From a plasmid: a stretch of DNA of 64,000 nt. Under the pieces are notes generated by a model that saw only the letters and a program-made list of their open reading frames with translations, was not told where the DNA came from and did not search any database. The number at the start of each line of letters is the position of its first letter. Position 1 is the first letter of the stretch. The stretch is taken from the NCBI RefSeq assembly GCF_054482525.1, contig NZ_JBTHVG010000003.1; one strand, given 5' to 3'. Position numbers and translations under genes: made by a program. Shown piece after piece: positions 19,615 through 57,847 of this stretch.

Positions 19615-19660
19615 ATCGCCTCCTCTGTTAATGTGAAACAAATATAACAAAGTGGCTTAC

Positions 19661-39004: not shown

Positions 39005-39829
39005 TTGTCCTGTTTAAGTAACCAACCCGCTGCCGCCAGGCGGGTAAATCCTCTTAATGGAGTTTTAATGCAAATCTCAACTGAAGTTCTGAACGTCTTA
39101 TCTCGCTGCCGTGCTGAAGGGAACTTTCTTTTCCTGGCCGACCAGCTCGACCGCAGCATTTATGTTAAGACAAACAAAGTGCTGGAAGCTGCCGGTGGCA
39201 AATGGAACCGAAAAGAGCAGGCACATATTTTTACGGCGGATGCAGCTGAGCGTATCGAGCAAATCATTCTGACAGGTTCGGTCGACATCCCACGTGATTT
39301 GTTCAATTTCTTCCCTACCCCTGAGAATTTAGTCACAGATATGGTTCTACGCGCTGAACCAGCTGCCGGGGAACGTGTTCTGGAGCCTGAGTTTGGTGAT
39401 GGCCGCATTCTGAAAGCCTTAAAACTGGCGGCTCCGGATGCATTGATTACCGGGATCGAATTGAACGATGAGCGATTCCTTGCAGTGAAGAACGATAGTG
39501 TCCTTAGCACAGGGGCCGAGCTGGTGCATACCGACTTTCTTGGGTACCAGCCCGATGAAACTTTTGATGTTATCGTTATGAATCCACCATTCCTTAAACG
39601 CTCTGACGTTAAACATGTCATGCATGCCATCGCAATGCTCGCTAAGCGAGGTCGCTTACAGGCCATTCTGTCAGCTGGGGTATTGTTCCGGGAAGACACA
39701 CTGACAAAAGCGCTCAGGGAGCGAGTCAAACAACTTGGCGGACAAATTTCGCCTCTTCCGGATGATACATTTAGGGAGTCCGGAACAAAGGTCAAAACAG
39801 CCCGCCTTGAAATTGATCTTCGCCGCTAA
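39005..39829 (+). CDS. N6-adenine DNA methyltransferase-like protein (short form)
   Basis: SAM motif 'VLEPEFGDG', motif IV 'VIVMNPPF'; core paralogous to C-terminus of 56156-57847 (shared 'ITGIEL'). Confidence 0.6.
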   Translation: MSCLSNQPAAARRVNPLNGVLMQISTEVLNVLSRCRAEGNFLFLADQLDRSIYVKTNKVLEAAGGKWNRKEQAHIFTADAAERIEQIILTGSVDIPRDLFNFFPTPENLVTDMVLRAEPAAGERVLEPEFGDGRILKALKLAAPDALITGIELNDERFLAVKNDSVLSTGAELVHTDFLGYQPDETFDVIVMNPPFLKRSDVKHVMHAIAMLAKRGRLQAILSAGVLFREDTLTKALRERVKQLGGQISPLPDDTFRESGTKVKTARLEIDLRR

Positions 39830-39922
39830 CTGACAAGCAACCGGAAAGAAATCTTAATACGAGTAGCCGGTTAAAGTTACCTGACCGGCTTAACTGACTA
39901 AATCAATAAAGAGTGAACAGAA

Positions 39923-40186
39923 ATGACGCATACTGCCGTTTCTCAGGCTAATAGTGCTTTGCAGCTACCCACGCTGGAGCATGTCTACGCACTTCTGAAA
40001 GCAAATTGTAAACCTGACCGCTTTGACGGGCGTGACGGACCCGTGTGGGGCCAGGAATACTCGTGGAATCTGGCAAAAGATCGCTTACAGGATCTGGAGA
40101 AATACGGTAAGGCATATGTCTCCCGTCATGAAGACCGTATGGGGGAAGGATTTAGTTTTGGTCCTGACCTGTTAATTATTCGCTAA
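39923..40186 (+). CDS. hypothetical small protein
   Basis: ORF. Confidence 0.3.
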   Translation: MTHTAVSQANSALQLPTLEHVYALLKANCKPDRFDGRDGPVWGQEYSWNLAKDRLQDLEKYGKAYVSRHEDRMGEGFSFGPDLLIIR

Positions 40187-40206
40187 CGCTCTTAAGGCCT
40201 GATGAT

Positions 40207-40818
40207 ATGGTAAGCACAACTGGAAAAAATATGTTTTCAAAGCCTATGACCACTTTCACACCAGAACGTATTGAACAAATTTTGGAATTTTCCGAGGGTA
40301 GTAACCCAAGCGAAGCAATGAGTCTTAGAGCTGACGAAGTTGCTGTACTGGCACGTATTGGAAAGGCAGTTATGTCGATTGCGCCTGTTTATCAGTGCGA
40401 GTTTTGCCACCATGACGCAACCGGGCAACTTCAGTGGCACTGGGAAGATGTGAACAAAGCTTTTTATGATAAATACGATCCAGACAGACGCGGAAGACGT
40501 CGAATCCTCTATACCGCCCCGCCGATGCCTTTAGTTTCGGCTGACCTGCTTAACATGGCTTCATCTGCTATTGAAGACTTGCTCACTAACAAAGACAGAA
40601 GTGGTGCGGGAATGTGGAATGACATTCCAGAACAGCTACGACGCGCAGCAGAACTGGTAATGGATAATAGCCGGGCCGCTGAAATAGAAGCGATGCTGAT
40701 GCGTCTTTATGTAGAATGTGACACCGGTGAGCGCAGAGGCAACGGCAGTCAATCTGGCGTAGCAATGCCTTCGTGGCAAACCGTTGAAGAGGCACGTGTG
40801 TTGCTGGGGGTGAAATGA
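40207..40818 (+). CDS. hypothetical protein
   Basis: ORF. Confidence 0.35.
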   Translation: MVSTTGKNMFSKPMTTFTPERIEQILEFSEGSNPSEAMSLRADEVAVLARIGKAVMSIAPVYQCEFCHHDATGQLQWHWEDVNKAFYDKYDPDRRGRRRILYTAPPMPLVSADLLNMASSAIEDLLTNKDRSGAGMWNDIPEQLRRAAELVMDNSRAAEIEAMLMRLYVECDTGERRGNGSQSGVAMPSWQTVEEARVLLGVK

Positions 40819-41282
40819 TGCAGTTCTCGCCAGGGCAGTTTGTAATTCACAACAAGAAGCGCCTTGCGGAACGAAGGTAGACGTACTGACTGAGGTTCAC
40901 TCCCCTCTCGACTGGTGGCGTAATACCGCCAGGTTTTGATTCATATATGCCGTCCGTTAACGCATTTATATCTGTCATACCTAATTTATCCTGATTCTTT
41001 TTTACACAAAGTAAAAGCATCACTTAATGCGATATGTGGATGCCGATAGTTTCAGGCTAATGTTATAAGTTTTGCAATCGTTGCCAGTTTGGATACCACA
41101 GCAATGTCAGATGTAATTCCAAAAAGAAAGATTTACGTCCTGAACGCACAATAAGGTTTGTCGAAAGGCAAATTATAGATTTGTAATTTCGAGCACCATA
41201 TGGAGAAGTTTTTTATACTTTTACGAACATAGTGACCTTTAGGAAAAGCTTAAAATAACACCAAACCTAAAGGGGAATAAGA

Positions 41283-43703
41283 ATGAAACATCTCGCTTTT
41301 ATTACTGCTGTAGCCGGACTCGGTATGTCTGTTCAGGCCCCAGCTCAGATATATGAATCGGCCTTTAAGGACACGAACGGTATTGAGATCCACGCCCCGT
41401 CTTCTCGTCTTATGCTTAATCCGGCATCACCGGTAACTTTGACACTTATTTCAGGTCTTGATCGTTTCGTTAATGTCAAAGTCACGAAAGACACTGGAAC
41501 TGTCATTCTTAATACTACGACTACACGGACGGGTGTATCAGACCGACTAACAGCTGCTGACGGTAGTGAGTTCTACGGCAAAAAAGTAACTTTGCCTGCT
41601 TTGGGTGAAGGCAAATTTGTCGTTCAGATAAACGTGTTAGATCTCAATCAGAAGCCTGTAGCGACCTATAACTATAACTGGCTAATTGATGTCACCCCTC
41701 CAGCGGCAAATGCTCTTACCGCTAATACTGGTTCTGGCTCTACCGCTGGTGACGTGTGGAAGCTTGGATTAGAGGCAACGGGGCAGTATGACTTCACCTC
41801 TTCGGGCGTAAGTGATGCAAATGGTATTGATAAGGGCCTAATATATATTTACAGGCAGGACGGTAGCCTCTACAGCACTACACAGATGCAGTATGACGTA
41901 TCCGGCCAAAAGATGTACCACACTTACTCTAAGAATTCAGTTAAGGGAACCGGAATACCAGACAGCAACCTGGATGAAGACTTTACTGCAAAAGTTGTTA
42001 TCTTCGATAACGCAGGTAATAGCCGAACGCTGCCAACTCAAAAATTTCGCTACGACAACACGCTGGGTGAGATGACACTGTGGGCCGTTCATGATCCAAA
42101 TACGTCTTCCAGCGTCGTACCCGGGGTTTCTAATTATCCGGCTTACAAAGCCGGTATGGTCGTTAACGAAAACCCTATTCGATTAGTCTACCGGATCCCA
42201 AAATCTAACTACCGTGCTTATTCAGAAGGTGGGCTTCAGTTCATCAATCAATATTCCGCCCCCAAAGAGATAGCTGTAGACAGCACTTATGCTTATGTTG
42301 AAATGACTCTTCCCTATGGCTCAATTAATGGGGATATGGCTCGTATGGCGAACTTTGGCCAGTGGGGAGGGTATTATCCGTCATACAGCCTCGTTCTAAA
42401 CCCATCTGCAAACCAAACGCCTGCATTTGCGGGTACCTGGGTAGATTTCCTCGATGATAAGGGGAACTGGGTTAAGTGGAAGGATTTTGAGAGTGTGGCT
42501 TCATCACGACTGCCAATTAAAATTTCCCGACTTCGTTTTAACGTTGAAGCCCGGCCCTTTGCACAGGAGATCGGCGGTAAGGCGACCTGCACCATTCCGG
42601 CAGGAAAAACCTCGTGTGAAGCGCCTGAGACGTTTGATATGGCCTTGGGTACCCAGGGCTACAATAGAATCCTTTACTTCGTTCGCAGCATCAGCAATCC
42701 CATTTTGCGGTCTGAGCAATGGATTATGACACGCTGGAACAATAAACAACTGCCGGTAATAAACTCGATATCATATGACGAGACTAACAAGCAGCTGGAT
42801 GTACTGGCGTCACTTGAAGGCGATGGTAACTGGTTCGACTCGGTCTCATTGAGGGAATTTTATCTTTCCGATAAGAACACCGGTACCCGGATGTCACCAA
42901 CAGGCGTAATCAAATCTCGTATCTCAGGTAACTACACGATTGCTTATGATTTATCCCGTCAGTCTGAAGGAAAATACAACGTTGAGGTCAACATCAGGGA
43001 CTTCTTCCAGAACCAGACCAATAAAACTTTCGGAGAAATTGCTCTGGATAACACTCCTCCGACAGTGGCCATAACATTCGACGGAAAGCCGGTAAAAGAC
43101 GATACGGTAGTGTACGGCCTGGAGAACCTCAGGATCGCTCTGGCAGATAATCTGACAACCCCGAGGATAACCCGTCTTCAGCTCGTAGGTGGCCCCACAG
43201 CTGATAACGTTGAGCTTACGTGGTCACCGGCAGGCAAAGATACATACATGCCTGAGTATCCGAGGCTGTTCCCAAATTTCGAACCATCTGAAAATTATTC
43301 AATTAGCGTAACAGTTGCCGATAGTCAGTCGAATACCAAAACCTATACTCAGAAGTTCAGTTATCTACCGAATAACCTTGTGCAGTTACATAATCTACGC
43401 ACATTGTCGGTCAGTTCACCTCTCAAAACGACAGATGGCGTACCACTTGCGTACCTGTCCACTAACGTTCTGCGTAAGACAAATGGAGAAATTGCTAAAG
43501 GGGTCCAGAACGCAACGCTGACTGTGCGGAAGGATGCAGCCTTCGGTATTAAATTTAATGGGGCACAGGCGGCTCCAGGCGAGTCAGTTGAGGTGCAAAT
43601 AGATATGGGCCAGGGGGATAATCTTCTGTTACCCGTTTATCCTTCCGAAAATGGGAAAGTTGGCACCTCAGAATTCATGATTCAGATCGACGAGTTGAAG
43701 TAA
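41283..43703 (+). CDS. large secreted protein, paralog B
   Basis: Signal peptide, 806 aa, conserved blocks shared with paralogs A and C; ATG with AGGGGA RBS. Confidence 0.6.
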   Translation: MKHLAFITAVAGLGMSVQAPAQIYESAFKDTNGIEIHAPSSRLMLNPASPVTLTLISGLDRFVNVKVTKDTGTVILNTTTTRTGVSDRLTAADGSEFYGKKVTLPALGEGKFVVQINVLDLNQKPVATYNYNWLIDVTPPAANALTANTGSGSTAGDVWKLGLEATGQYDFTSSGVSDANGIDKGLIYIYRQDGSLYSTTQMQYDVSGQKMYHTYSKNSVKGTGIPDSNLDEDFTAKVVIFDNAGNSRTLPTQKFRYDNTLGEMTLWAVHDPNTSSSVVPGVSNYPAYKAGMVVNENPIRLVYRIPKSNYRAYSEGGLQFINQYSAPKEIAVDSTYAYVEMTLPYGSINGDMARMANFGQWGGYYPSYSLVLNPSANQTPAFAGTWVDFLDDKGNWVKWKDFESVASSRLPIKISRLRFNVEARPFAQEIGGKATCTIPAGKTSCEAPETFDMALGTQGYNRILYFVRSISNPILRSEQWIMTRWNNKQLPVINSISYDETNKQLDVLASLEGDGNWFDSVSLREFYLSDKNTGTRMSPTGVIKSRISGNYTIAYDLSRQSEGKYNVEVNIRDFFQNQTNKTFGEIALDNTPPTVAITFDGKPVKDDTVVYGLENLRIALADNLTTPRITRLQLVGGPTADNVELTWSPAGKDTYMPEYPRLFPNFEPSENYSISVTVADSQSNTKTYTQKFSYLPNNLVQLHNLRTLSVSSPLKTTDGVPLAYLSTNVLRKTNGEIAKGVQNATLTVRKDAAFGIKFNGAQAAPGESVEVQIDMGQGDNLLLPVYPSENGKVGTSEFMIQIDELK

Positions 43704-43804
43704 CTACCCGGAGCCGACAGTAAAACTGACGGCTTCAATTTTACTGCCCTCCTCGACTCCGATCAGCCAGTACGTCTTCAGAGATTCGCAAGGAAGAACC
43801 GAAA

Positions 43805-43817
43805 GAAAAGTTACTTT
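43805..43817. promoter_or_regulatory. palindromic motif copy (gaaaagttacttt)
   Basis: Read directly; 3' of paralog B, next to iteron field. Confidence 0.3.
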
Positions 43818-43868
43818 AATCGTACGTTTCCAGCGATGCTTTCAAAAGACAATGCATACTCGTTGATT

Positions 43869-44350
43869 ACGACAATGGGAGTGAGTGTCGAACCCCTTGA
43901 GTAAGGATACCTGGTAAATATACAGCCCCGGGGATTCTCTTCCTTCAACCGGGGATGACAACGGGAGTGAGTCCGGCAACTCACACCTGTTGTCACTTCT
44001 CTGACATATCGTCATACGAGCTTACTCAAGCGCATCCACAAAGATGGGATCGTTTTGAATCTAAACTGGTACTGGTTAGCCAGTCACTTGCATCTACTCC
44101 CCCGTCGATATTTAAGTGACAATTGTAGTGATCTGCAATACTGGTGTCTCAGAAACACTGACGACGGTAGAGACTCAATACCCTAACCCCTGACAACAGA
44201 AGTGAGCTTAGAGGTGTTACGCTGCTGTCACCTAATGCTTGGGAATTGCCTGACTCACAACCATTGTCATCCGGAGCTACTGATTAACGTTGAACCGCTG
44301 GACTTTAATGACAGTGGTAGTGATGGATAGGCTCATTTCCATTGTCGTCA
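43869..44350. repeat. iteron-like palindromic repeats (distal part of the repA downstream repeat field)
   Basis: At least five units with gacaaYRRgagtga half-sites, the same core as the 46076-47320 array. Confidence 0.55.
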
Positions 44351-44354
44351 TTTT

Positions 44355-46055
44355 ATCGGAGAACCACGGCAGCCTGGCGGCTGCAAATTGAAAACCGCCC
44401 CGGTTCGTCCTGTTGTTGCCGCACGCCCCGCAGAATATGTATGCTCTGAGGACCTGTTTTATTAAGGACTCATCCCCTTATGTTGACCCGCAAAAGTATC
44501 GATACAGTTCTGCTCTCTGTTGGTGCTGAGAAGCTCTCACAACGAGAATGGGACTGGATGAAAATGCTCAAACCCATGGACCCACCACCTGCGATGGTGA
44601 CGACCTCCATCCTGAAGCGCCGTGGCGATACAGCAGCCCTTACCCTGCTACAGGATACCGGGGTTTAATCCATCCTCATGTTGTCCGGTTTTACTCCCCG
44701 CCCTCTGAAACGTCTGTTCACAGCCAACCAGTGCTGGACGTCCTTCCTGGATGCGGGCGGTCTGCGCGATATCGAGGTTGAAGCCGTCACCAAAATGCTG
44801 GCCTGCGGCACACGGATACTGGGTGTAAAAGAGTTCGGGTGTGATAACCCGGACTGTCAGCACGTAAAGTACCTGACCAACTCATGCGGCAGCCGTGCCT
44901 GCCCGTCCTGCGGAAAGAAGGCCACAGACCTGTGGACAGCAACACAGCTGAATCGTCTTCCTGACTGCGACTGGGTACATCTGGTCTTCACCCTGCCGGA
45001 CACGCTGTGGCCGGTGTTCGAAAGCAACCGCTGGCTGCTGAATGACGTGTGCCGTCTGGCGGTGGAGAATCTGCTGTATGCCGCCCGAAAACGGGGGCTG
45101 GAACCCGGTATCTTCTGCGCCATCCACACGTATGGCCGTCGTCTCAACTGGCATCCGCATGTACATGTGTCTGTAACCTGTGGAGGTCTGAATAAGCATG
45201 GTCAGTGGAAAAAGCTGAGCTTCCTGAAAGACGCGATGCGTTCACGGTGGATGTGGAATATGCGGCAGCTGCTTCTGAAAGCGTGGTCAGAGGGGATGGC
45301 AATGCCGGAGTCGTTGTCACATATCACGACGGAATCACAGTGGAGAAGCCTGGTGCTGAAATCCGGCGGAAAATACTGGCATGTGTACATGTCGAAGAAG
45401 ACAGCCGGAGGGCGGAATACGGCACGCTACCTGGGTCGTTATCTGAAGAAGCCACCAATAGCGGCTTCCCGACTGGCTCATTACAACGGAGGGGCAAGCC
45501 TGAGCTTCCGTTACCTGGACCACAAAACGGGAGAAACGGCGACGGAAACGCTGACACAGCGTGAGCTGGTCGCGAGGCTGAAACAGCACATCCCGGAGAA
45601 GTTTTTTAAGATGGTGAGGTACTTCGGGTTCCTTGCCAACCGTGTGTGTGGAGAGAAGCTGCCGCAGGTGTACCGTGCACTGGGGATGGATAAACCGGAA
45701 CCAGTGGCGAAAGTGTGCTATGCACAAATGGTGAAACAGTTCCTGAGTCGTGACCCGTTCGAATGCGTGCTGTGTGGCTGCCGGATGGTATACCGCCGGG
45801 CCATTGCGGGGCTGAATGTATCAGGGCTGAAGAAAAACGCGCGGGATATCAGTCTACTGAGGTATATGCCGGCCTGACACAGGCTAAGTGTGCCCGGGAA
45901 TCGGTGAAAGTATAAAAAACAGCCTGTTACGGTATAAAAATCGACCATACAGAGAGGGAAACCACCGGAGTGGTGGGAAAAGCAGAAAGGCTCACGTGGC
46001 ATAAGGCGTGGACAATGGTATCGACTGGTTTTTCAATTTCCTATACGTCAAGCCT
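44355..46055 (+). mobile_element. IS91-family insertion sequence (IS1294-like); ends approximate
   Basis: Rolling-circle transposase gene plus small upstream ORF; no inverted repeats; right end near '...tttttcaatttcctatacgtcaag'. Interrupts the iteron field. Confidence 0.6.
44678..45877 (+). CDS. IS91-family rolling-circle (HUH/Y2) transposase
   Basis: N-terminal Zn-binding 'CQHVKYLTNSCGSRACPSCG', HUH-like 'WHPHVHV', C-terminal Tyr-containing region. Confidence 0.75.
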   Translation: MLSGFTPRPLKRLFTANQCWTSFLDAGGLRDIEVEAVTKMLACGTRILGVKEFGCDNPDCQHVKYLTNSCGSRACPSCGKKATDLWTATQLNRLPDCDWVHLVFTLPDTLWPVFESNRWLLNDVCRLAVENLLYAARKRGLEPGIFCAIHTYGRRLNWHPHVHVSVTCGGLNKHGQWKKLSFLKDAMRSRWMWNMRQLLLKAWSEGMAMPESLSHITTESQWRSLVLKSGGKYWHVYMSKKTAGGRNTARYLGRYLKKPPIAASRLAHYNGGASLSFRYLDHKTGETATETLTQRELVARLKQHIPEKFFKMVRYFGFLANRVCGEKLPQVYRALGMDKPEPVAKVCYAQMVKQFLSRDPFECVLCGCRMVYRRAIAGLNVSGLKKNARDISLLRYMPA

Positions 46056-46075
46056 CTTCGTCCTACAGGTTTAAG

Positions 46076-46925
46076 CTGACAATGGTAGTGATTGGATGAT
46101 CTCACTACTGTTGTCACTCAGTTCTTTGAGCGGACCCTTCCCTCGGTTGGTCGGCATTAACAACGGTAGTGACTCGATTGGCTCACTGCCATTGTCATCG
46201 TGTAAATGACGTACCTTATCAGCTCAGCTGAAAGCAATGACAACGGTAGTGACTCTAATTGCTCACTGCCATTGTCGTCGTGTCTATTGAGAGCCTTATC
46301 AGTGCACCTGAAAAGCAATGACAACGGTAGTGATTCTAATGGCTCACTACCGTTGTCACCGTGTGTATTGAGAGGATGGTCCACTTAACTGGACGTATAT
46401 GACAATGGTAGTGACTTTAATAGCTCACTACCATTGTCGGTGTGTGAATTGAGAGGATGAGCAGCTCAGCTGTACGTCCATGACAATGGTAATGACTTAA
46501 TGAGCTCACTACCGTTGTCACCCTGTTAATTAAGAGGCTCATCTGCTCTTCTGGAAGGCTATGACAACGGAAGTGACTTGCTGGGCTCACTGCCATTGTC
46601 GCCGTATGAATTGAGAGGATCATCCGCTCTTCTGGATGGCAATGACAACGGTAATGACTTAATAGGCTCACTACCATTGTCACCCTGTGAATTGAGAGGA
46701 TGATCTGCTTAACCAGACGGCCATGACAACGGTAGTGACTTTCTGGGCTCAATACCGTTGTCACCCTGTGAGTTAAGAGGTTGACCCGCTCTACTGGACG
46801 GCCATGACAACGGTAGTCACTTTCTGGGCTCACTACCGTTGTCGCCATATAGAATGAGAGGAGCATCAGCTCAACTGAACGGCAATGACTACAGTAATGA
46901 GCTGGATGAAGCATAACCATTGACA
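46076..46925. repeat. tandem array of ~81-bp units, each containing a palindromic iteron pair
   Basis: Unit starts read at ~46076, 46157, 46236, 46318, 46399, 46480, 46561, 46642, 46723, 46804, 46885; unit core atgacaacggtagtgac-N-gctcactaccgttgtcac; degenerate copies continue to ~47320. Confidence 0.8.
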
Positions 46926-47388: not shown

Positions 47389-48477
47389 TTAGCTGGCGTT
47401 GCTGTTCTTTTTCTGGCTTCGAAGACTACGAATATAGCGCAGTTCTTCAGCGGTTAAATCATGGACGGTAAGAACATCATCGCCGTCAATCGGGTCAGCT
47501 GGTGGGCATAACTCACCTTCTAAAACAGAAGACCCTGAGTTCTCTTCTTCATCTTCAACCACTTCTAAAGGAGGCTGAGTATTGTTCAAATTCAGATCGG
47601 GATCCCGCTTATGAATCTGGAAGTATACTTTTCCGTCTTTCTTAATTTCGGTGTACTTGAGGTATCCTATCGATGCCAACTCTTCAAGAGCCTTTCTCAC
47701 GGTAGCATTCTGACTATTTGCTCGTGTTTTGAGGTTCAGACGATTTTTCAGCCGAGTAAGGGATATCGGTATAGGATTTGGCGGTAATGACTCTATGAAC
47801 GTATAGAGAGCCTGGGCGCTTTCCTTCTTGGCCAACTCCTTAATTGCCTTCAGCTGCATCAAAACCTTATGATCGTATTGATAGAGCTCGAAAATCTTAG
47901 GATCAACCTGAAGGACAACCTGATCTGATTCCGGGTCTAACAGGGCAGACTGTACCAGATGCGTTGTATAGACTTTGGACGAGTTATTACTGGTGAACGA
48001 CAAGGTAACGGATGCTAACCTGCGTAAGGAGGCGTCTATACGTTTTCTGGACGCTGTAGATGAGCGATAATTTTCAGGCGTACATAGCTTGAGGAATTCA
48101 GTGAATTTTAAGCTTATCGTGTCATTGTTAATCGGATGATTGGCATAGGTTCGAATGATGCCCATCCACGTCTTAAAATCTACTGACATATTAAGACGCT
48201 CACCGACAATTGAAATATTGGTGAACCCCTCGCTCTCCATTAAAGAGAGCGTCTGTAACTCTTTCGTTGCGTCAAAGCCAACCGTTTTATATTCCCGATT
48301 TTGACGCCCCACACTCTTTGGTGATGGGACGAACAGCCCGAGCCGCATCAAAGCAATAGACTGCACCGTACGGTTGCTGTTAGGACGCAAAATGATGTCT
48401 TTACCTGATTCTTTCTCTCTAACAGAGAAAGCCCTGGTGACCAGGTCCTGCTGCTCAGTATCTTTCTCTTTAGTCAT
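47389..48477 (-). CDS. repA: iteron-type replication initiator RepA (P1/RepFIB group)
   Basis: Segments 'NRTVQSIALMRLGLFVP', 'DFKTWMGII', 'AQALYTFIESLPPNPIPISLTRLKNRLNL' match my recollection of P1 and RepFIB RepA; flanked by iterons on both sides. Confidence 0.75.
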   Translation of the reverse strand: MTKEKDTEQQDLVTRAFSVREKESGKDIILRPNSNRTVQSIALMRLGLFVPSPKSVGRQNREYKTVGFDATKELQTLSLMESEGFTNISIVGERLNMSVDFKTWMGIIRTYANHPINNDTISLKFTEFLKLCTPENYRSSTASRKRIDASLRRLASVTLSFTSNNSSKVYTTHLVQSALLDPESDQVVLQVDPKIFELYQYDHKVLMQLKAIKELAKKESAQALYTFIESLPPNPIPISLTRLKNRLNLKTRANSQNATVRKALEELASIGYLKYTEIKKDGKVYFQIHKRDPDLNLNNTQPPLEVVEDEEENSGSSVLEGELCPPADPIDGDDVLTVHDLTAEELRYIRSLRSQKKNSNAS

Positions 48478-48548
48478 AATAAGTTATCACTGAATGTGTA
48501 AACAGATTGGTGAATAGTAAGCCCCAGCGAACTCTATGTCACTGGATG

Positions 48549-49447: not shown

Positions 49448-49481
49448 ACCATGGTAGTGAGTCTAATCACTACCATGGTCC
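49448..49481. repeat. isolated palindromic iteron pair
   Basis: gaccatggtagtgagtctaatcactaccatggtc. Confidence 0.55.
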
Positions 49482-49584
49482 GCAGTAAGCGTTACTTACG
49501 CAATGAACGTCGGACTGATTTGCAACAACATGGGCTACGGCGCATCAGAAGGCGGCCGTTGTGCTTCAGCAAAACAGCCCTGCT

Positions 49585-52041
49585 TTATTTTAATTCTTCA
49601 ATGTTAATCATGAACTCAGATCTGCCAGTAAGGCCGGATACAGCAGGGAAAATAGGAAAGCTACGGCTGTCCCCGAGCCCCAAATCCAGTTGAAGCTCTT
49701 TGCTTTCACCTGGCATCGCAGAAACGCCATTTACAGTCACGCCGAATGCAGCGTCCTTACGGACAGTAAGCACTGCGTCCTGAAGCCCTGTAGCGATTGA
49801 ACCATCCTTTTTACGCAGCTGGCTGGCATACAGAACAGCCAGAGCAGTATTGTCAGATGTTTTGAGAGAAGCATTGACAGCTAAGGTTTTCAGATTCTCT
49901 AGCCTGACGAGATTGTTTGGAAGGTAGTTAAATTCGACTGAGCTTTCTTTAACGTTGTTCATCTCATCTTTGGCCTGAACTGTGAGAGTGTATGTTTCGC
50001 CTTCATTAAGAGACGGAAAGATCTTGGGATAATTAGGTGCATACAGGTTGTTTCCCAGATTCACCCAAGACAATTCCACCGCATCAGAAACAGGGCCACC
50101 GCGAAGAGTCATACGGCTTAAGGATGGTTTAGTTAGAGCATCGGTGAGCTGTATACGGACGTTCTCCAGCCCATATACTGTTACGTTTTTGCTGATCGGT
50201 TTTCCTTCGTAGCTAATACTTACAGATGGTGCTGTATTATCAACGACAACTGTTTGATAAGGGAGGTTACCGGTATTGTTGAATGTATCTTGGGCATTAA
50301 TCACCACGTTATAACTGCCTTCTGGTACCTCTTTCATGTTGAACTCATACGTGTAGTTCCCAGACGCCATATTTCTACCTGTTTGTTTGCCGGTTACGCT
50401 TATTTCTGCGTTGTTACGGTTTTTATCTGACAACCAAACTCGATTTACATAAACATGGTCGAAATATGAACCATCTCCAGGTTGATTCACGTAAACCTGG
50501 AGAATGTTGGTGGTTTCATTGTAATCAAATCCAGTGACGGAGGGACCCAGTGTATGCCAGGCTATATTCTCCCATATAGGGGCAAAGAAGGTTGCTTCGG
50601 TGGTTGACCTTACTTCATAGCCACTATGAAGATAACCGGTAGTGCCATTTATAATATCCTGGGGCAAAGAGACGGTACAGGTTGTTGAGCCAGCTGGAAT
50701 ACTGCATGTTGCTCCGCCAGTGATTTTTTGATCATATGGCCTGGCCTGTACATTGAATCGGATATTAGTAAGTTTTATAGGCATATCAGATGCCTTGAAC
50801 AGGTTCCAGTTTACGCTGTTGAACCATGTTCCATCAGCCTTTTGTCGTTCTATGGGTGAACTTCCCCAAGCCGGACTCTTTACAGAGGCAGGATCCCAGT
50901 TGAGCCAGCTGGCATACTGACCAAGATCTCCTCCAGACCATTGATATGTATTCACAGGTCTATAGTAGTTTCCATCTAAGGCACCCTGTGGCAGCTTAAC
51001 TTCCACGTAGACATAGGTGGCATCTTCGGAAAGGACCTGTACTCCGCCATAGTTATTGGTAATGCTCATGCCACCATTTCGATATGGCTTCCAGTTAGTT
51101 CTTGGGATACGTATAACCAACTTGTAGGGGTTTTCCAGCACTGTAAGGCCTCGTTTAAACGGGACGTATCCCGAAGAAATGCCGGGTACAACACTGGTGC
51201 TTACACGTGAGTCATGAACTGCAAATGGCGTAAATTCTCCCATTTGATCGTCATATAAAAACCGCTGGGGAGGAATGTTAAGCGTATTTCCTGCCAGGTC
51301 CGTAACGATGAAATTGAAGGTGAATTCTTCATCAAGATCACTTGAGGGCATGCCAGCCTGGGTGTTCATATCTTTAATCCACGGATAGACCGCACGTTTA
51401 TTGGCTGTGTCATAACTCAGGTTATTGTCGGAGACCACAGAACCATTACTTCGTTTAATGACAAGACGGATCTTGTCAATTCCACTAGCATCCTCAATAC
51501 CGTCTGCAAATATAGAAAACTGGCCACTACCGCCTCGGCCCAACTCCCAAAGTGGCCCAGAAAGTACCATGTCGTAACCTGCGTTTTGACTCGGATAAAT
51601 ACTCTTATAGCGTGGAGGAGTTGTATCAACGATGAAATGATAAGTAGATGTGCTCACTACAGTCTGGCGAATATCCAGAGTTTCATTGACTACAGTAAAG
51701 GTCCCTTCTCCGAGCGCCGGTAGAACCATATCCTTTCCATAGTATTCTGTTCCATCGGCAGCAACGATACGATCTGCAACGCTCGTTTTGGTCGAGACGG
51801 AGGAATACATAACCTTTTTATCGCTGTCTCGTGTGACCGTCACTCGCTCGTACCGATCAAGACCCGATATCAAGTTCAGAGTCAAAACACCAGCGGGATT
51901 AAGATATGTTTGTGTTGCAGGTTTGATATTCCGAACAGCCTTATTGGTATCTGTAAATGAGTAGCTAAATACCTGAGCATGTGCCGAAGATACAGTAGCA
52001 AGGGCAGTTGCAACCATGCAGCCAATTAGAGTTTTACGCAT
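49585..52041 (-). CDS. large secreted protein, paralog C
   Basis: Signal peptide 'MRKTLIGCMVATALATVSSAHA', 818 aa, blocks shared with A and B; ATG with GGAG RBS; two palindromic motif copies 150-235 bp upstream. Confidence 0.6.
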   Translation of the reverse strand: MRKTLIGCMVATALATVSSAHAQVFSYSFTDTNKAVRNIKPATQTYLNPAGVLTLNLISGLDRYERVTVTRDSDKKVMYSSVSTKTSVADRIVAADGTEYYGKDMVLPALGEGTFTVVNETLDIRQTVVSTSTYHFIVDTTPPRYKSIYPSQNAGYDMVLSGPLWELGRGGSGQFSIFADGIEDASGIDKIRLVIKRSNGSVVSDNNLSYDTANKRAVYPWIKDMNTQAGMPSSDLDEEFTFNFIVTDLAGNTLNIPPQRFLYDDQMGEFTPFAVHDSRVSTSVVPGISSGYVPFKRGLTVLENPYKLVIRIPRTNWKPYRNGGMSITNNYGGVQVLSEDATYVYVEVKLPQGALDGNYYRPVNTYQWSGGDLGQYASWLNWDPASVKSPAWGSSPIERQKADGTWFNSVNWNLFKASDMPIKLTNIRFNVQARPYDQKITGGATCSIPAGSTTCTVSLPQDIINGTTGYLHSGYEVRSTTEATFFAPIWENIAWHTLGPSVTGFDYNETTNILQVYVNQPGDGSYFDHVYVNRVWLSDKNRNNAEISVTGKQTGRNMASGNYTYEFNMKEVPEGSYNVVINAQDTFNNTGNLPYQTVVVDNTAPSVSISYEGKPISKNVTVYGLENVRIQLTDALTKPSLSRMTLRGGPVSDAVELSWVNLGNNLYAPNYPKIFPSLNEGETYTLTVQAKDEMNNVKESSVEFNYLPNNLVRLENLKTLAVNASLKTSDNTALAVLYASQLRKKDGSIATGLQDAVLTVRKDAAFGVTVNGVSAMPGESKELQLDLGLGDSRSFPIFPAVSGLTGRSEFMINIEELK

Positions 52042-52194
52042 ATGATGCTCCGGGAATAGGTTATAGCCTTATTCTACGGATTCAGCCTACAAGGTCCGGT
52101 CGGATAAAGTGATAATTTGCCTGTTAAAAGAGACATCAAGTGAGAAAGCAACCAACGTACAGAATGCAAAATGGCGGCAGTGCATCTGGATGAC

Positions 52195-52211
52195 GCAAAA
52201 GTAACTTTTTG
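52195..52211. promoter_or_regulatory. palindromic motif copy (gcaaaagtaactttttg)
   Basis: Read directly; 5' of paralog C. Confidence 0.4.
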
Positions 52212-52259
52212 TATCCACTTTTTTGGATTTTAGCCTTCAAAATGAGTATTCAACCAATC

Positions 52260-52275
52260 ATAAAAGTAACTTTTG
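52260..52275. promoter_or_regulatory. palindromic motif copy (ataaaagtaacttttg)
   Basis: Read directly; second copy 5' of paralog C. Confidence 0.4.
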
Positions 52276-52535
52276 ATAGACGCTGCTCCTTTATGTTTGC
52301 CAATTGTGCTGATATGTTTGTAAATTCAAGGAAGCGAGATTTTAAAAGCATCTGTTGAGTCAAATTTATGTAAAATAACAGGGAAACCATCACTTCTAGG
52401 TTGAGGAAACCCAATGTTATACATGCTCTTATGCTGTTTTCTGATAGACTGGCCCCCTGAATCTCCAGACAACCAATATCACTTAAATAAGTGATAGTCT
52501 TAATACTAGTTTTTAGACTAGTCATTGGAGAGCAG

Positions 52536-52901
52536 ATGATTGATGTCTTAGGACCGGAGAAACGCAGACGGCGTACTACACAGGAAAAGATCGCTATTGT
52601 TCAGCAGAGCTTTGAACCGGGAATGACGGTCTCCCTTGTTGCCCGGCAACACGGTGTGGCAGCCAGCCAGTTATTTCTCTGGCGCAAGCAATACCAGGAG
52701 GGAAGTCTTACTGCTGTGGCCGCAGGAGAACAGGTCGTTCCTGCCTCTGAACTTGCTGCTGCCATGAAGCAGATTAAAGAACTCCAGCGCCTGCTCGGCA
52801 AAAAAACGATGGAAAATGAACTCCTTAAAGAAGCCGTTGAATACGGGCGTGCAAAAAAGTGGATAGCGCACGCGCCCTTATTGCCCGGGGATGGGGAGTA
52901 A
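52536..52901 (+). CDS. insC: IS2 InsC (OrfA)
   Basis: '[26 protein letters not shown]...' recognised as IS2 OrfA. Confidence 0.85.
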
Positions 52902-53764
52902 GCTTAGTCAGCCGTTGTCTCCGGGTGTCGCGTGCGCAGTTGCACGTCATTCTCAGACGAACCGATGACTGGAAAGATGGTCGCCGCAGCCGTCACTCAG
53001 ATGATACGGATGTGCTTCTCCGTATACACCATGTTATCGGAGAGCTGCCCACGTATGGTTATCGTCGGGTATGGGCGCTGCTTCGCAGACAGGCCGAACT
53101 TGATGGTATGCCTGCTATCAATGCCAAACGTGTTTACCGGATCATGCGCCAGAATGCGCTGTTGCTTGAGCGAAAAACCGCTGTACCGCCATCGAAACGG
53201 GCACATACTGGCAAAGTGGCCGTGAAAGAAAGCAATCAACGATGGTGCTCTGACGGGTTCGAGTTCCGCTGTGATAACGGAGAAAAACTGCGAGTCACGT
53301 TCGCGCTGGACTGCTGTGACCGTGAGGCACTGCACTGGGCAGTCACTACGGGCGGCTTCGACAGTGAAACAGTACAGGACGTAATGCTGGGAGCGGTGGA
53401 ACGCCGCTTCGGCAACGAGCTTCCGGCGTCTCCAGTAGAGTGGCTGACGGATAATGGTTCATGCTACCGGGCTAATGAAACACGGCAGTTTGCCCGGATG
53501 TTGGGGCTTGAACCGAAGAACACGGCGGTGCGGAGTCCGGAGAGTAACGGCATAGCAGAGAGCTTCGTGAAAACGATAAAGCGTGACTACATCAGTATCA
53601 TGCCTAAACCAGACGGGTTAACGGCAGCAAAGAACCTTGCAGAGGCGTTCGAGCATTATAACGAATGGCATCCGCATAGTGCACTGGGTTATCGCTCGCC
53701 ACGGGAATATCTACGGCAGCGGGCCAGTAATGGGTTAAGTGATAACAGGTGTCTGGAAATATAG
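52859..53764 (+). CDS. insD: IS2 InsD (OrfB)
   Basis: 301-aa ORF overlapping insC 3' end; recognised as IS2 OrfB. Confidence 0.85.
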
Positions 53765-53918
53765 GGGCAAATCCATCTGATGCTCAACAGTACATTCGTT
53801 ATGTTCAGAGCAATGTCTGCAATAAGTAAAGGATCCGCTAAAGAAAACCGGTCTGAAATATCGCTGATAGTCCTAGCAACACTTGGAATCGCATCACCAT
53901 TCAGGTAATGACTCCAAC

Positions 53919-54422
53919 TTATTGATAGTGTTTTATGTTCAGATAATGCCCGATGACTTTGTCATGCAGCTCCACCGATTTTGAAAACGACAGCGACTTC
54001 CGTCCCAGCCGTGCCAGGTGCTGCCTCAGATTCAGGTTATGCCGCTCAATTCGCTGCGTATATCGCTTGCTGATTACGTGCAGCTTTCCCTTCAGGCGGG
54101 ATTCATACAGCGGCCAGCCATCCGTCATCCATATCACCACGTCAAAGGGTGACAGCAGGCTCATAAGACGCCCCAGCGTCGCCATAGTGCGTTCACCGAA
54201 TACGTGCGCAACAACCGTCTTCCGGAGCCTGTCATACGCGTAAAACAGCCAGCGCTGGCGCGATTTAGCCCCGACGTATCCCCACTGTTCGTCCATTTCC
54301 GCGCAGACGATGACGTCACTGCCCGGCTGTATGCGCGAGGTTACCGACTGCGGCCTGAGTTTTTTAAGTGACGTAAAATCGTGTTGAGGCCAACGCCCAT
54401 AATGCGGGCGGTTGCCCGGCAT
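53919..54422 (-). CDS. insB: IS1 InsB
   Basis: 167-aa ORF overlapping insA end. Confidence 0.85.
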
Positions 54423-54616
54423 CCAACGCCATTCATGGCCATATCAATGATTTTCTGGTGCGTACCGGGTTGAGAAGCGGTGTAAGTGAACTGCAGTTGC
54501 CATGTTTTACGGCAGTGAGAGCAGAGATAGCGCTGATGTCCGGCGGTGCTTTTGCCGTTACGCACCACTCCGTCAGTAGCTGAACAGGAGGGACAGCTGA
54601 TAGAAACAGAAGCCAC
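54341..54616 (-). CDS. insA: IS1 InsA
   Basis: 91-aa '[43 protein letters not shown]...'. Confidence 0.9.
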
Positions 54617-54688
54617 TGGAGCACCTCAAAAACACCATCATACACTAAATCAGTAAGTTGGCAGCATCACCCACCATTCATTGTCGCA

Positions 54689-55153
54689 ATGATTACTATT
54701 AATGAAAGTATGACATCTAAAACAGTAACAGATTTTTCTTTGGGTGCTCAGTGGTACGGAATGGTTTCAGCGGTAGCGCTAATGGGGTTATATGCTCGAC
54801 GCGTTTGGAAAGAGAAGAAGTCCTTATTTACTGGCGCTTTCCTGGCCTCTTCCTTAATGGCCTTTATTTTTACTGACAGCCTTGTTTTCGTATCCCAGAA
54901 GGACACCGGCGTTCTGGCTACTTTCGTACTCGATAAAAACGCTGGAGATATTGATTGTAGTCGCCCGGCTATGATTGTCCATTACAGTAAAGGTGTTCCA
55001 ACGGACTGGCGTTGCCCAACCAGTATCATGTTGATGGCGTATTCTTCATATCCTTTTTTACCCTGGCCTGAGTATAGCCATGGTACCAGCCAGTCTCTTA
55101 CGGTTGTTATTGATACATTTATGGAAAACGCTGTTAATCTCAGCCAAAAATAA
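54689..55153 (+). CDS. membrane hypothetical protein (ORF begins 18 bp after IS1 end)
   Basis: ORF with hydrophobic helix; followed by hairpin terminator; 5' region may have been disrupted by IS1. Confidence 0.35.
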   Translation: MITINESMTSKTVTDFSLGAQWYGMVSAVALMGLYARRVWKEKKSLFTGAFLASSLMAFIFTDSLVFVSQKDTGVLATFVLDKNAGDIDCSRPAMIVHYSKGVPTDWRCPTSIMLMAYSSYPFLPWPEYSHGTSQSLTVVIDTFMENAVNLSQK

Positions 55154-55157
55154 AAAA

Positions 55158-55185
55158 TAAACCTCACTAGTGAGAGGTTTTATAA
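55158..55185 (+). terminator. rho-independent terminator-like hairpin
   Basis: aacctcactagtgagaggtt stem followed by tttat. Confidence 0.45.
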
Positions 55186-55210
55186 ACCTGAGCCACCAAT
55201 CTAATTAACT

Positions 55211-55492
55211 CTATATTTTTGTTTTAGCTTTTTTAAAGATAGACTTACCGAATAAAACAGCAATTATAGAGCAAAGGCCTGGCGTTAGGACAAAAGCTAA
55301 TAATGCACTGCCAAAACTTGTCATTTCAGGCACCAGGAACCAGCTGATAGGCCACGTCAGGGCTGGTAAATTTAGCGGATCATAAAGCGCATGTAGAGCG
55401 CTTAACACACAGTAAAGTGCTAAAAAGCAAACTAGATAAACAACGATCCACATTTTAATTTGCTCAGCAATTTCAAATTTTGGACTGCCCAT
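55211..55492 (-). CDS. small membrane hypothetical protein
   Basis: ORF with hydrophobic helices. Confidence 0.35.
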   Translation of the reverse strand: MGSPKFEIAEQIKMWIVVYLVCFLALYCVLSALHALYDPLNLPALTWPISWFLVPEMTSFGSALLAFVLTPGLCSIIAVLFGKSIFKKAKTKI

Positions 55493-55934
55493 GCTTTACC
55501 TCAGTGGCTGAATATTGATGGTTAATATCTTTAATCACCCGTAAGCACTTAGTGCATACCTTAGTTCGATTTGTCTGCTTGTCCAGAGTGTATTTAACTT
55601 CAAGTTGACCTCCAGCATTAAGCAAAGTGAGCATCTCATCTTCTAACACGCTTCGGTAAATGGTCTTGGCCGAGAGTGTGCCCGGTAACGAGTACTCAAC
55701 ATAATTGTTTGAAACTCTTACCGATTTAGGGATTTTACCACTGAGCTGGGTTTCATTCGTTGAAGGCATTACAGTTACTTTAATCACAGTTGCCGGTGAC
55801 CAGAAATCCTGATAACGCACTTTATGAATTTTATCAGCTCTAAGGCCTAACCACACATTTCCGGCGATAAGAACAATAAGCAATCCATAAACTGATCGTC
55901 GAATGTTACGCCTTTTAATCACAATGTCCCCCAT
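55473..55934 (-). CDS. membrane-anchored hypothetical protein
   Basis: ORF with N-terminal TM. Confidence 0.35.
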   Translation of the reverse strand: MGDIVIKRRNIRRSVYGLLIVLIAGNVWLGLRADKIHKVRYQDFWSPATVIKVTVMPSTNETQLSGKIPKSVRVSNNYVEYSLPGTLSAKTIYRSVLEDEMLTLLNAGGQLEVKYTLDKQTNRTKVCTKCLRVIKDINHQYSATEVKHGQSKI

Positions 55935-56155
55935 CCCTCAAATATCATTCTAAATAACTGCACCAGGATATCATGAGCGTAATTAATAGAATTCTTCATA
56001 ACCGGGGTTTTCAGTTGAGTTTGCGGACTCTTTACTTTGCGGTTTCTCACCCTCTAGTTGAGTATCCCTGACAGGCTTGGATTTACCCATGCTCCTCTGA
56101 AAGGTATCCATAACAAACTCAATATCTTCTTCTGGCAGGCTGGTGGGTTGGTTGC

Positions 56156-57847
56156 TCATAGGACTTCCTCTTGTTGAATACGTTCGGCGTACAGGATGCG
56201 AACCGAAACGGTCGTGTTTTCAAACTCGTTCTCAAAAACGTCCATCCATTCCGTCCGGAATTCTTCCCCCAAAAGGTTATCGAGCCCCTGAAGAGATAAT
56301 GGAAGAACGGCTGCTAGAGATCCCCCGGCTGCGAGATGAGATGCAGCTGCCTGGAGATGCAGCCTGGCCCGGTTATCGGCAAAAGGTGGGTTCATCACGA
56401 CATAATCAAACTTCTTCTGTTGATTAGACTTAGACCATGTGAGGAAGTCAGCTTCTGTCGTATCGTATCCCTTAGCCCGGGAGATAAGGCAATTCAAAGT
56501 ATCAAGCTCGATGCCAGTAACGATCACACCGGCAGGGAATGATTTAAGCAAATCCGCATGGCCAATATTAGGCTCCAGGAGGGTATCCCCTTCCCCTGCA
56601 CCAAGCAGGGAAGATACATATTCGCTGATTCGGCAAGATGAAGGGTAAAACTGATGCGATACAATATCAGGCATCTCCCCTATCTGGCCGATGTAACGAA
56701 TAACCTCACACGGATCATAGGAAAATGTCACATCGTATTTTGTTACTGTTGCCCCTAAGAACCGAAGGGTGTCAGCGGCAACACTCGAAGATTTGCGTTC
56801 GGCGAGAGACCCTAAAGATGTCCAGCAACTCCATTTATTGTCCCCGTCATTTTTAAACATCAGTTCAGAAAGCTGCATCCGGGTATCAAAGTCGATGCAC
56901 TGCTTAAGTACAGGGAATGCCTCCAAAGATTTCTTGCTATGAGCCATACGGTCGGCAGGTAATGCCAGCGGTACGATAGCTGATAAAATATTGTTAAGCC
57001 GCTCGGCGATATCAGGGTGGACGTCAATATGCATTGATCCATTTTTGTAAACCCTGAAACGAATACTGTTGCCATCGATGCAGATCCATTTTCTGAACCC
57101 CTCATGTTCGACCAACGCCTCAACCAATGATTTGGTGTTATGGATCGCCTTCACCTGTTCGCCACGGAAGAATGCGCATATAACGCGGAGCTCGCTCAGC
57201 GGTGAAATGCCAGACTCTTTAAAATCCACCCTTAATTTCTGCCAGGGGTATTTAGACGGCTCGCAAACTCCGGTAGTGATCATGCGGGTGGAGAACCCAA
57301 AAGCTTTGTTTGTCTTGTGACTGCGGCTCAGAGACTGGAAGACGTCGTAAACCCTTTCTTTAATAAATTGATTGCGGTCATTAAGCAAAGCAACGACTGT
57401 GCCCACTACAGCGTCAGCTGTGAAATCAGGGATCACCTGAGGCGGCATAATATAACGGTCGGCCGTAAACTGCTTATCCCATTCGTTACGTTTGGCATCC
57501 GACATGATAGGCAAAACATCAGTGAGTGCCATAACGCATTTCCAGTATTCTGATCTCAGAGCGTTTTCTGCGAACAAAGCATCCGCTTCTGAGATGCTGT
57601 GGTTGTAGCCTGAGAGATAAGAATAAAGTTTCTGGTGATTGTGGGTTTTGAACTGGACAGCCATGAGTTTCAACAAGCAGAGTTCATCATTATAGGACTC
57701 AACAAGATCCGCGATAATGCCGAGCTCTTTGCGCATATCTGGAAGAAATGTTTCAGGAGAGCTAACCACCAGGCTATGAGAGGTTGTTAAAGCCAGTACG
57801 CTGTGACCTGCATTATCGGGTTTAGCTTCAGAATCAAGAGATGACAT
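56156..57847 (-). CDS. N6-adenine DNA methyltransferase-like protein with ~380-aa N-terminal extension (long form)
   Basis: C-terminal 'ITGIEL' and 'DYVVMNPPF' motifs paralogous to 39005-39829. Confidence 0.6.
   Translation of the reverse strand: MSSLDSEAKPDNAGHSVLALTTSHSLVVSSPETFLPDMRKELGIIADLVESYNDELCLLKLMAVQFKTHNHQKLYSYLSGYNHSISEADALFAENALRSEYWKCVMALTDVLPIMSDAKRNEWDKQFTADRYIMPPQVIPDFTADAVVGTVVALLNDRNQFIKERVYDVFQSLSRSHKTNKAFGFSTRMITTGVCEPSKYPWQKLRVDFKESGISPLSELRVICAFFRGEQVKAIHNTKSLVEALVEHEGFRKWICIDGNSIRFRVYKNGSMHIDVHPDIAERLNNILSAIVPLALPADRMAHSKKSLEAFPVLKQCIDFDTRMQLSELMFKNDGDNKWSCWTSLGSLAERKSSSVAADTLRFLGATVTKYDVTFSYDPCEVIRYIGQIGEMPDIVSHQFYPSSCRISEYVSSLLGAGEGDTLLEPNIGHADLLKSFPAGVIVTGIELDTLNCLISRAKGYDTTEADFLTWSKSNQQKKFDYVVMNPPFADNRARLHLQAAASHLAAGGSLAAVLPLSLQGLDNLLGEEFRTEWMDVFENEFENTTVSVRILYAERIQQEEVL

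Follow-up and report, generated by a model that had tools for sequence, protein, structure and literature searches.

Two putative adenine methyltransferases on the IncHI2 plasmid backbone, one of them fused to a DUF4942 domain, as apparently ancient members of one methylase-module family

The DNA considered here is a 64,000-nucleotide stretch of a plasmid (NCBI RefSeq assembly GCF_054482525.1, contig NZ_JBTHVG010000003.1), called the window below. It carries two genes for putative adenine methyltransferases, a short one (S, 253 amino acids, aa) and a long one (L, 563 aa). The two proteins share one two-part module, in which a pre-domain of ~75 aa is followed by a minimal catalytic core of ~170 aa, and L has a DUF4942 domain in front of it. 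Judged by sequence comparison, S and L belong to a single methylase-module family as two members of ancient origin, and L is a long-established DUF4942 fusion; this account replaces the duplication with domain accretion that a preliminary description had proposed. The reading preferred here, with a probability of roughly 0.6, is that both are orphan gamma-class N6-methyladenine (m6A) DNA methyltransferases whose role is to shield the plasmid against restriction, and that DUF4942 is an autonomous accessory module.

The relationship between S and L is visible in direct comparison and much clearer between profiles. BLASTP aligns residues 44-222 of S with 348-515 of L at 27% identity over 183 aa (expectation value, E, 7e-12). 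Profiles built from 15 S relatives and 18 L relatives match with a probability of 99.9% and E 1.3e-32 over 197 columns, pairing S 2-211 with L 317-525. Against the best solved methyltransferases (7vru and M.TaqI), the S-family profile reaches E 6e-10 to 1e-8, over only the ~95 residues of motifs I-IV. Because the match between the two families far exceeds the match to solved methyltransferases, the similarity is specific and not generic to the Rossmann fold. The earlier proposal of two homologous methyltransferase cores is thus borne out: both open reading frames (ORFs) exist, 39005-39829 on the plus strand and 56156-57847 on the minus strand, and the homology extends beyond generic motifs for binding S-adenosylmethionine (SAM), over ~200 residues that include the pre-domain. 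The motifs ITGIEL and VxVMNPPF, described as shared, are literal in S only; L reads VTGIEL and YVVMNPPF, and what the two have in common is TGIEL and VMNPPF. The N-terminal region of L, put at ~380 aa, is shorter than thought, because homology with S begins near residue 317 and leaves a unique part of ~315 aa.

The start of S also needs adjustment. It is almost certainly the ATG at 39068, giving 253 aa, and not the TTG at 39005, because a GGAG lies 5 nucleotides upstream of this ATG, the Met that it encodes is the start in 13 of 15 aligned S homologues, and RefSeq annotates a coding sequence of 762 nucleotides. The TTG start is probably an over-extension. The pre-domain that follows carries a conserved QLDRxLYxxTNKVLEAAGGKWNRKxKAHIF block. 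It is common to S, L and giant phage proteins (the phrog_9133 match spans S 11-245), no Pfam family covers it in S, and in L it is predicted to form a small alpha/beta unit. L as a whole matches phrog_6263, named "DNA methyltransferase", along its full length (E 1.4e-111).

The catalytic cores show the features of gamma-class enzymes. Motif I precedes motif IV in both proteins, and EPxxG, the acidic TGIEL, (T/A)DFL and NPPF stand in gamma-class order. The core of S contains FFPTP (aa 81), motif I LEPEFGDG (aa 105-112), motif II TGIEL (39449-39463), motif III TDFL and motif IV NPPF (aa 172; 39581-39592). The corresponding elements of L are FYPSS (aa 400), EPNIGHA (aa 425-431), TGIEL (56507-56521), ADFL and NPPF (aa 486; 56381-56392). 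TGIEL and (T/A)DFL are invariant in both families. By sequence, the best solved relatives are M.TaqI and type I HsdM-like enzymes, S matching M.TaqI at E 1e-6 and L weakly, and for the pair PADLOC gives hits to models of type II, orphan and MAD2 methylases only.

S and L resemble M.TaqI and EcoKI HsdM-like enzymes in the motif order I-IV, in (E)PxxG, GIEL, DF and NPPF and, for S, in an aromatic-Pro-Thr-Pro stretch before the core. They differ in having no C-terminal target-recognition domain, their chains ending ~75-80 aa after NPPF, and no HsdS partner, no HsdS-like specificity gene lying near either of them. Their core is only ~170 aa long, the similarity is confined to ~95 residues (E 1e-6 to 1e-10), and a family-specific N-terminal pre-domain is present. 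Another likeness is found in DarB-type polyvalent proteins, which contain a monophyletic EcoKI/TaqI-like adenine methylase module with an N-terminal helix bearing a TP motif and with NPP(Y/F) (Iyer et al. 2017, PMC5512222). In the giant proteins of phrog_9133, 15406, 11358 and 10691, it is the methylase segments that S and L match, and the phrog_9133 match includes the pre-domain. Unlike DarB-type proteins, S and L are small and lack a superfamily 2 (SF2) helicase or other effector domains, the GxGU motif of LPD36 is not evident in their pre-domain, and packaging into virions or co-transfer is not indicated.

Both proteins belong to large families. S relatives fill more than 1,900 clusters at 90% identity, and the full-length ones of ~250 aa among 120 listed are 45-73% identical to S. 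A profile of the N-terminal 340 residues of L finds 2,002 clusters at 50% identity, at least 423 of them at E<=1e-30. In the best 150 of these 2,002 clusters, nearly all proteins are 510-580 aa long with DUF4942 at the N-terminus. Of 138 full-length L-family representatives, 135 have NPP[FYW]; the short ones seem to be truncated. Phages of Pseudomonas, Aeromonas, Marinomonas and others, as well as SSU5-type phage-plasmids, also carry full-length L homologues. Since this architecture is fixed in at least 423 clusters and extends to phages, the joining of DUF4942 to the core appears to predate IncHI plasmids by a long time; as far as sequences can tell, the fusion is old and fixed.

These data bear directly on the idea that L arose as a duplicate of an anti-restriction S within the plasmid and then gained an N-terminal sensing or regulatory domain that changed its specificity. 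The common two-part module and the location of both genes on one backbone, ~16 kb apart, are what such a history would leave behind. However, S and L are only 25-27% identical and are not each other's closest relative, S being closer to the listed ~250-aa relatives from its own clusters. Among PHROGs, S scores best against the giant phage methylase modules (phrog_9133, 6e-45), followed by phrog_15406 and phrog_11358, and reaches only 2e-25 against phrog_6263, the family of L. The fused architecture, older than IncHI plasmids, likewise speaks against it, and duplication within the plasmid is very improbable. The comparisons instead indicate that S and L diverged long ago into separate, populous families of fixed architecture, with no recent duplication. 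Their enterobacterial homologues diverge roughly in step (73% for S with 70% for L; 53% for S with 58% for L), and both genes were probably already present in ancestral IncHI plasmids. Domain accretion is nevertheless the right term in the evolutionary sense, because each half of L occurs elsewhere as a free-standing protein. For a sensing or regulatory function of the added domain, no supporting evidence was found.

The domain added in L is DUF4942. The Pfam family (PF13708) matches at E 1.7e-21 and 77 bits, covering model positions 3-186 of 190 and L residues 96-290. An AlphaFold2 model of L 1-340 is reasonably confident (predicted local distance difference test, pLDDT, 77; predicted template modelling score, pTM, 0.68). 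In it, a helical bundle leads into a mixed alpha/beta part whose end is a beta-hairpin-helix, and this fold has no counterpart among solved folds. Searches of the literature on DUF4942 yield incidental mentions and no functional data.

Free-standing DUF4942 proteins are encoded on plasmids and in chromosomal islands. A tblastn search of plasmids gives many weaker L matches (26-27% identity, on IncI and IncL/M plasmids) that span only L ~70-315. One of these proteins is YgfB (282 aa), encoded two genes from nikA/oriT in IncI1 plasmids and near ardA. YgfB aligns with L 44-299 (hhalign E 6e-21), and the alignment ends where YgfB itself does, at its C-terminus. An IncI1 plasmid with YgfB also carries yfbB, a "putative methylase" gene of the size of M.EcoGIX (~227 aa). 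In pOXA-48 (IncL), a free-standing DUF4942 protein of 286 aa is clustered with ssb, an anti-restriction gene, DUF1380, DUF3085 and a JAB/RadC-type gene. In chromosomal islands of E. coli and Shigella, a DUF4942 gene follows the yfjX(klcA)-yeeS-yeeU-yeeV cluster and adjoins DUF957 (PMC6980539). IncHI2 plasmids themselves encode a divergent free-standing DUF4942 protein of 272 aa, outside the window (NZ_CP019647.1 151485-152303; locus L021, 1485-2303), ~3 kb from a C5 cytosine methylase gene, a DUF1173 gene and a thermonuclease gene. Given this gene and S, both halves of L have free-standing counterparts on the same plasmid. The best-supported view of DUF4942 is that of an autonomous accessory module that repeatedly accompanies DNA-modification and anti-restriction genes.

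Split versions of the fusion were considered and rejected. The gene that overlaps the IncHI2 free-standing DUF4942 gene downstream encodes a 401-aa coiled-coil protein and not a methylase. The 254-aa gene just upstream of S (38223-38987) does not encode a divergent DUF4942 (hhalign probability 0.3%), and its product has no Pfam match. Obligatory co-occurrence of DUF4942 with a gamma-class core does not hold either, as one IncF plasmid has a core-only methylase and no annotated DUF4942 between psiA and traM. The core-only S relative of 187 aa, annotated as "class I SAM-dependent methyltransferase", is encoded in the leading regions of IncF plasmids, with DUF3560 on one side and ssb on the other. 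It matches the S family at hhalign E 1.7e-32, with 31% identity over 162 columns, and shows the pattern VTP...MNPPF; it has neither pre-domain nor DUF4942, and unlike S and L it is a leading-region protein encoded amid anti-restriction, ssb and psiB genes.

The window itself contains side observations on this gene company. By colinearity with the Salmonella plasmid pD90-1, 18807-19298 (minus strand) and a small ORF at ~19300-19620 (minus strand) are DUF3085 and DUF957 genes. DUF3085 accompanies free-standing DUF4942 in the pOXA-48 cluster, and DUF957 does so in the E. coli/Shigella islands. There are hints here of an "establishment" set of genes, common to these elements and dispersed along the IncHI2 backbone.

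The residues that fused and free-standing DUF4942 members hold invariant are W102, W123, P140, L173, S174, T179, N180, I190, L220, R265, G270, H273, N285 and P293. These columns include no acidic or metal-site residue and no PD-(D/E)xK, HNH or other nuclease-like signature, and H177 and H277 of L are lost in free-standing members. One interpretation is that DUF4942 is the target-recognition domain missing from L, moved to the N-terminus, with reading DNA for the fused methylase as its sole role. In its favour, the core of L stops ~75 aa past NPPF without a C-terminal recognition domain, within the L family DUF4942 invariably stands at the N-terminus and together with the core, and the conserved polar residues S174, T179, N180, R265, H273 and N285 could contact bases. 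DUF4942 also occurs without any core, as described above, and this interpretation is rather unlikely.

A different interpretation makes L, with or without the neighbouring ParB-like protein, a restriction or defence enzyme, either type IIG-like or a pair of ParB-nuclease and methylase. Some GenBank phage records do name homologues "RE endonuclease" or "DNA restriction methylase", a ParB-like domain may be a nuclease (PMC5512222), the adjacency of the ParB-like gene and L is kept in IncHI-type plasmids (loci L003 and L005), and the beta-hairpin-helix element of DUF4942 bears the conserved H273 and N285. The absence of an invariant acidic residue or nuclease signature from DUF4942, and the loss of H177 and H277 when it stands alone, tell against this, and no recognisable nuclease domain (PD-(D/E)xK, HNH, PLD or similar) is found in the L polypeptide. 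PADLOC gives nothing for the ParB-like protein or other neighbours. A terminator-like hairpin parts the ParB-like gene from L, and distant L homologues have no ParB neighbour and lie in early regions of phages. Free-standing DUF4942 genes adjoin anti-restriction genes (ardA, klcA-type), which places the domain on the side of the invader. A defence role for L is thus hardly probable.

The wider neighbourhood agrees with an orphan status of both methylases. Searches with NCBIfam, PHROGs, PADLOC and Pfam find no nuclease or defence partner among the neighbours of S or L, and no conserved nuclease stands beside homologues in the contexts of five L and two S homologues. The Dam, ParB-like and DUF4942-methylase block is syntenic in L relatives at 47-58% identity (loci L003 and L005), the Dam-family gene being divergent from the ParB-like gene. 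The terminator-like GC hairpin and T-run between the ParB-like gene and L suggest, as sequence features, that L might have its own promoter in the gap 57848-57987. Distant L homologues occupy early or replication regions of temperate phages, beside lone methylases of Dcm and N4/N6 type and genes for PAPS-reductase-like proteins. In a lambdoid prophage, an S relative is located between N and cIII, the interval in which lambda has ral. By analogy, these contexts are typical places for protective orphan methylases.

A conserved partner for S was also sought and not found, since the 87-aa ORF 3' of S is unrelated to the 87-aa ORF 3' of the prophage S relative. As further observations on this flank, the 87-aa product downstream of S (39923-40186, plus strand) matches the phage family phrog_11469 (5e-15), and a 203-aa product encoded on the same strand as S (40207-40818, plus strand) weakly matches phrog_60 and phrog_660. 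The window encodes three separate ParB-like proteins (58095-59258, 62469-63524 and 7205-8389, all on the minus strand).

Both methylase genes belong to the IncHI2 plasmid backbone. Over the 4.5 kb around L, 1,114 plasmid records show 95-100% identity; they come from Escherichia, Salmonella, Enterobacter, Klebsiella and others, and most of them are conjugative. The S operon is found in 1,090 plasmid records. The matching record inspected, pD90-1, types as IncHI2A; it has repHI2 between S and L, with the Tra2 transfer genes located just outside the window. The assignment to the backbone follows from these matches together with the typing of pD90-1. Copies of IS91, IS2 and IS1 sit between S and L in the window and explain ~3.8 kb of extra DNA there relative to pD90-1. 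The window contains no Tra1 gene. In pSTM6-275, the relaxase genes MobI/MobH lie at 192-197 kb and L at 268 kb, and the 30-135 kb stretch beyond Tra2 contains no relaxase. A leading-region location of S and L, in the sense of Samuel & Burstein 2024 (PMC11541004) a place among the first few tens of ORFs counted from oriT, was considered and is ruled out by this distance.

An anti-restriction role for S and L, which the preliminary description assumed, is plausible from their context. M.EcoGIX and M.BceJIII are plasmid-encoded, single-strand-specific orphan adenine methylases of promiscuous specificity (Fomenkov et al. 2020, PMC7736820). Orphan methylases are a prominent class among leading-region genes, and M.EcoGIX helps its plasmid past the restriction barrier (PMC11541004, PMC7736820). 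Like these enzymes, S and L would be plasmid-borne orphan adenine methylases without a nuclease partner, which makes the comparison one of function; unlike S and L, the two are beta-class (DPPY), leading-region proteins and not homologous in class. The nearer relative of M.EcoGIX in the window is a third methylase, a 416-aa beta-class protein (N4/N6-type) encoded at 29018-30268 on the minus strand and named "site-specific DNA-methyltransferase" by RefSeq. It matches the PADLOC type II model PDLC03323 at 1e-46, its C-terminus weakly matches CcrM and PRK13699, and its ~100 N-terminal residues have no assigned domain. With S, L and the Dam-family enzyme, the window encodes four adenine-type methylases, and the C5 methylase is encoded elsewhere on the backbone.

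In the proposed mechanism, S and L would be expressed in the plasmid-bearing cell and would use SAM to place m6A on plasmid (and host) DNA. Together with the Dam-family and beta-class methylases of the plasmid, they would pre-protect it against restriction in new hosts. The transferred strand would keep its methyl groups, and the resulting hemimethylated sites would be refractory to most enzymes of types I and II. Because S and L are not close to the transfer origin (oriT), the early-expression model of leading-region genes is not directly transferable to them, and they would act before transfer, by pre-methylation in the plasmid-bearing cell, and not as early-entry genes. Since a conventional recognition domain is missing, their sequence specificity is probably short or relaxed. 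In S the specificity might come from the pre-domain, and in L DUF4942 might modify it. DUF4942 is hypothesised to target or load the methylase on DNA or another substrate as an accessory module, and not to be an enzyme itself.

Several observations weigh against S and L being protective DNA methyltransferases with a DNA-handling DUF4942. Neither gene is oriT-proximal, each being ~55-75 kb from MobI/MobH in pSTM6-275. The calculated isoelectric points, 6.8 for DUF4942 and 5.5 for whole L, describe neutral-to-acidic domains and give no electrostatic support for DNA binding. The literature on IncHI2 methylases and methylomes yields no functional or methylation data for S or L. In the IncHI clade of L, including the window protein, the motif before the core is altered: S has FFPTP and the L-family consensus is FYPTP, but this clade has FYPSS, with PSS replacing the family PTP (56645-56650, minus strand). 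The near-invariant second glycine of motif I is Ala in the same clade (EPNIGHA; 56555-56575, minus strand). L relatives at <=47% identity retain both GxG and PTP. In the alignment with L, motif I of M.TaqI is likewise non-canonical, and catalytic activity of L despite PSS and the motif I Ala is assumed here from its sequence.

The choice of substrate is a further point of doubt. In a fold search with the full L model, many RNA, protein and small-molecule methyltransferases score like M.TaqI, and in NCBIfam S has weak matches to PrmC (2.8e-8) and Erm (5e-5) that are far below the cut-offs. These matches leave room for a non-DNA substrate, so that S, L or both might methylate RNA or protein in the manner of HemK/PrmC-, Erm- or METTL5-like NPPF enzymes. 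The name "predicted RNA methylase" given by JGI to S relatives points the same way, as do the RNA and small-molecule methyltransferases among the top Foldseek matches of the L model. Sequence points to DNA, because M.TaqI and type I M subunits give the best matches among solved structures and because the DNA adenine methylase module found in DarB-type polyvalent proteins matches both S and L. The families are also confined to phage, plasmid and island contexts near DNA methylases and anti-restriction genes. A non-DNA substrate is accordingly judged improbable, and m6A methylation of DNA is retained as the preferred function.

The fusion may also inform on the free-standing proteins. YdiA/YgfB form family 24, a large uncharacterised leading-region family with a median ORF position of 1 from oriT (PMC11541004, supplementary file 3), encoded in IncF, IncI and IncL leading regions at the end nearest oriT. 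Searches of the literature on ydiA or ygfB yield no functional data. L 44-299 and YgfB align from end to end, and the two share the invariant residues W102, W123, S174, T179, N180, R265, H273 and N285. They differ in that YdiA/YgfB are ~280 aa long, without methylase and oriT-proximal, whereas in L the domain is joined to a methylase and the gene is >70 kb away from MobI/MobH. A bolder proposal, tentative and on the doubtful side, is that the DUF4942-methylase fusion could serve as a "Rosetta stone" for YdiA/YgfB. DUF4942 would then be a DNA-handling module of new fold that loads or directs adenine methylation on the DNA of plasmids or phages, or shields this DNA in another way. In the first minutes that follow conjugative entry, free-standing YdiA/YgfB would act alike in trans.

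Table 1. Coordinates of S, L, their parts and other features of the window.
Feature	Position	Strand	Basis
S, short methyltransferase gene, 253 aa, WP_001167416	39068..39829	+	ORF, RefSeq coding sequence, GGAG upstream of the ATG, homologue N-termini
S pre-domain, aa 1-75	39068..39292	+	invariant columns, hhalign, phrog_9133 match
S minimal gamma-class N6-adenine methyltransferase core (predicted)	39293..39826	+	
L, 563 aa, WP_042634269; DUF4942, pre-domain and methyltransferase core	56156..57847	-	
DUF4942 domain of L, aa ~44-299 (Pfam match aa 96-290)	56951..57718	-	
L pre-domain, aa ~317-395, homologous to S aa 1-75	56663..56899	-	hhalign
L methyltransferase core, aa 396-563	56159..56662	-	core pLDDT ~90
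ParB-like gene directly upstream of L	58095..59258	-	TIGR00180, phrog_1033
Terminator-like GC hairpin and T-run between ParB-like gene and L	57988..58005	-	consensus scan only
Dam-family methyltransferase, divergent from ParB-like gene	59628..60440	+	TIGR00571 2e-67, above cut-off
repHI2	47389-48477		
IS91 transposase gene	44678-45877	+	
IS2 transposase gene	52859-53764	+	
IS1 transposase gene	53919-54422	-	
IS4-family transposase gene	12249-13367	+	
IS3-family transposase gene	13819-15188	-	

Other genes of the window deserve brief mention. Three proteins of ~800 aa with Ig-like (Big_3) domains are encoded around S and repHI2, at 35272-37689 (minus strand), 41283-43703 (plus strand) and 49585-52041 (minus strand); a related class of Ig-like proteins is reportedly needed for IncHI conjugation. 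A 794-aa protein (23450-25834, minus strand) matches DndC/PAPS-reductase over residues ~60-360 (TIGR03183 6e-34; PADLOC DndC 4e-38) and has ~430 C-terminal residues without an assigned domain. A small PAPS-reductase gene also stands right after an L homologue in a phage contig (locus L009, 9554-10315). A 188-aa protein (21808-22374, minus strand) has a weak HNH-endonuclease signature (retron-type HNH, 2e-4), and RefSeq names its pD90-1 counterpart "HNH endonuclease signature motif containing protein". At the beginning of the window, 363-1544 (plus strand) encodes a protein with an SppA-like peptidase domain, and the 243-aa product of 1546-2277 (plus strand) weakly matches the MADS6 protein kinase of the methylation-associated defence system (8e-11, far below the cut-off).

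As methylases, S and L are ordinary. Both are already catalogued in RefSeq, Pfam and PHROGs, and both are uncharacterised; the one aspect worth experiment is the link of the fusion to the YdiA/YgfB leading-region family. In the published ranking, free-standing DUF4942 proteins are among the largest uncharacterised leading-region families. A fixed DUF4942-methylase fusion with its separate halves on the same plasmid offers a cheap experimental handle on this domain. Across Enterobacterales, IncHI2 plasmids act as major vehicles for mcr-1, mcr-9, carbapenemase and metal-resistance genes, and knowledge of the target of each methylase would help to account for the passage of plasmids of this size through restriction barriers from one genus to another.

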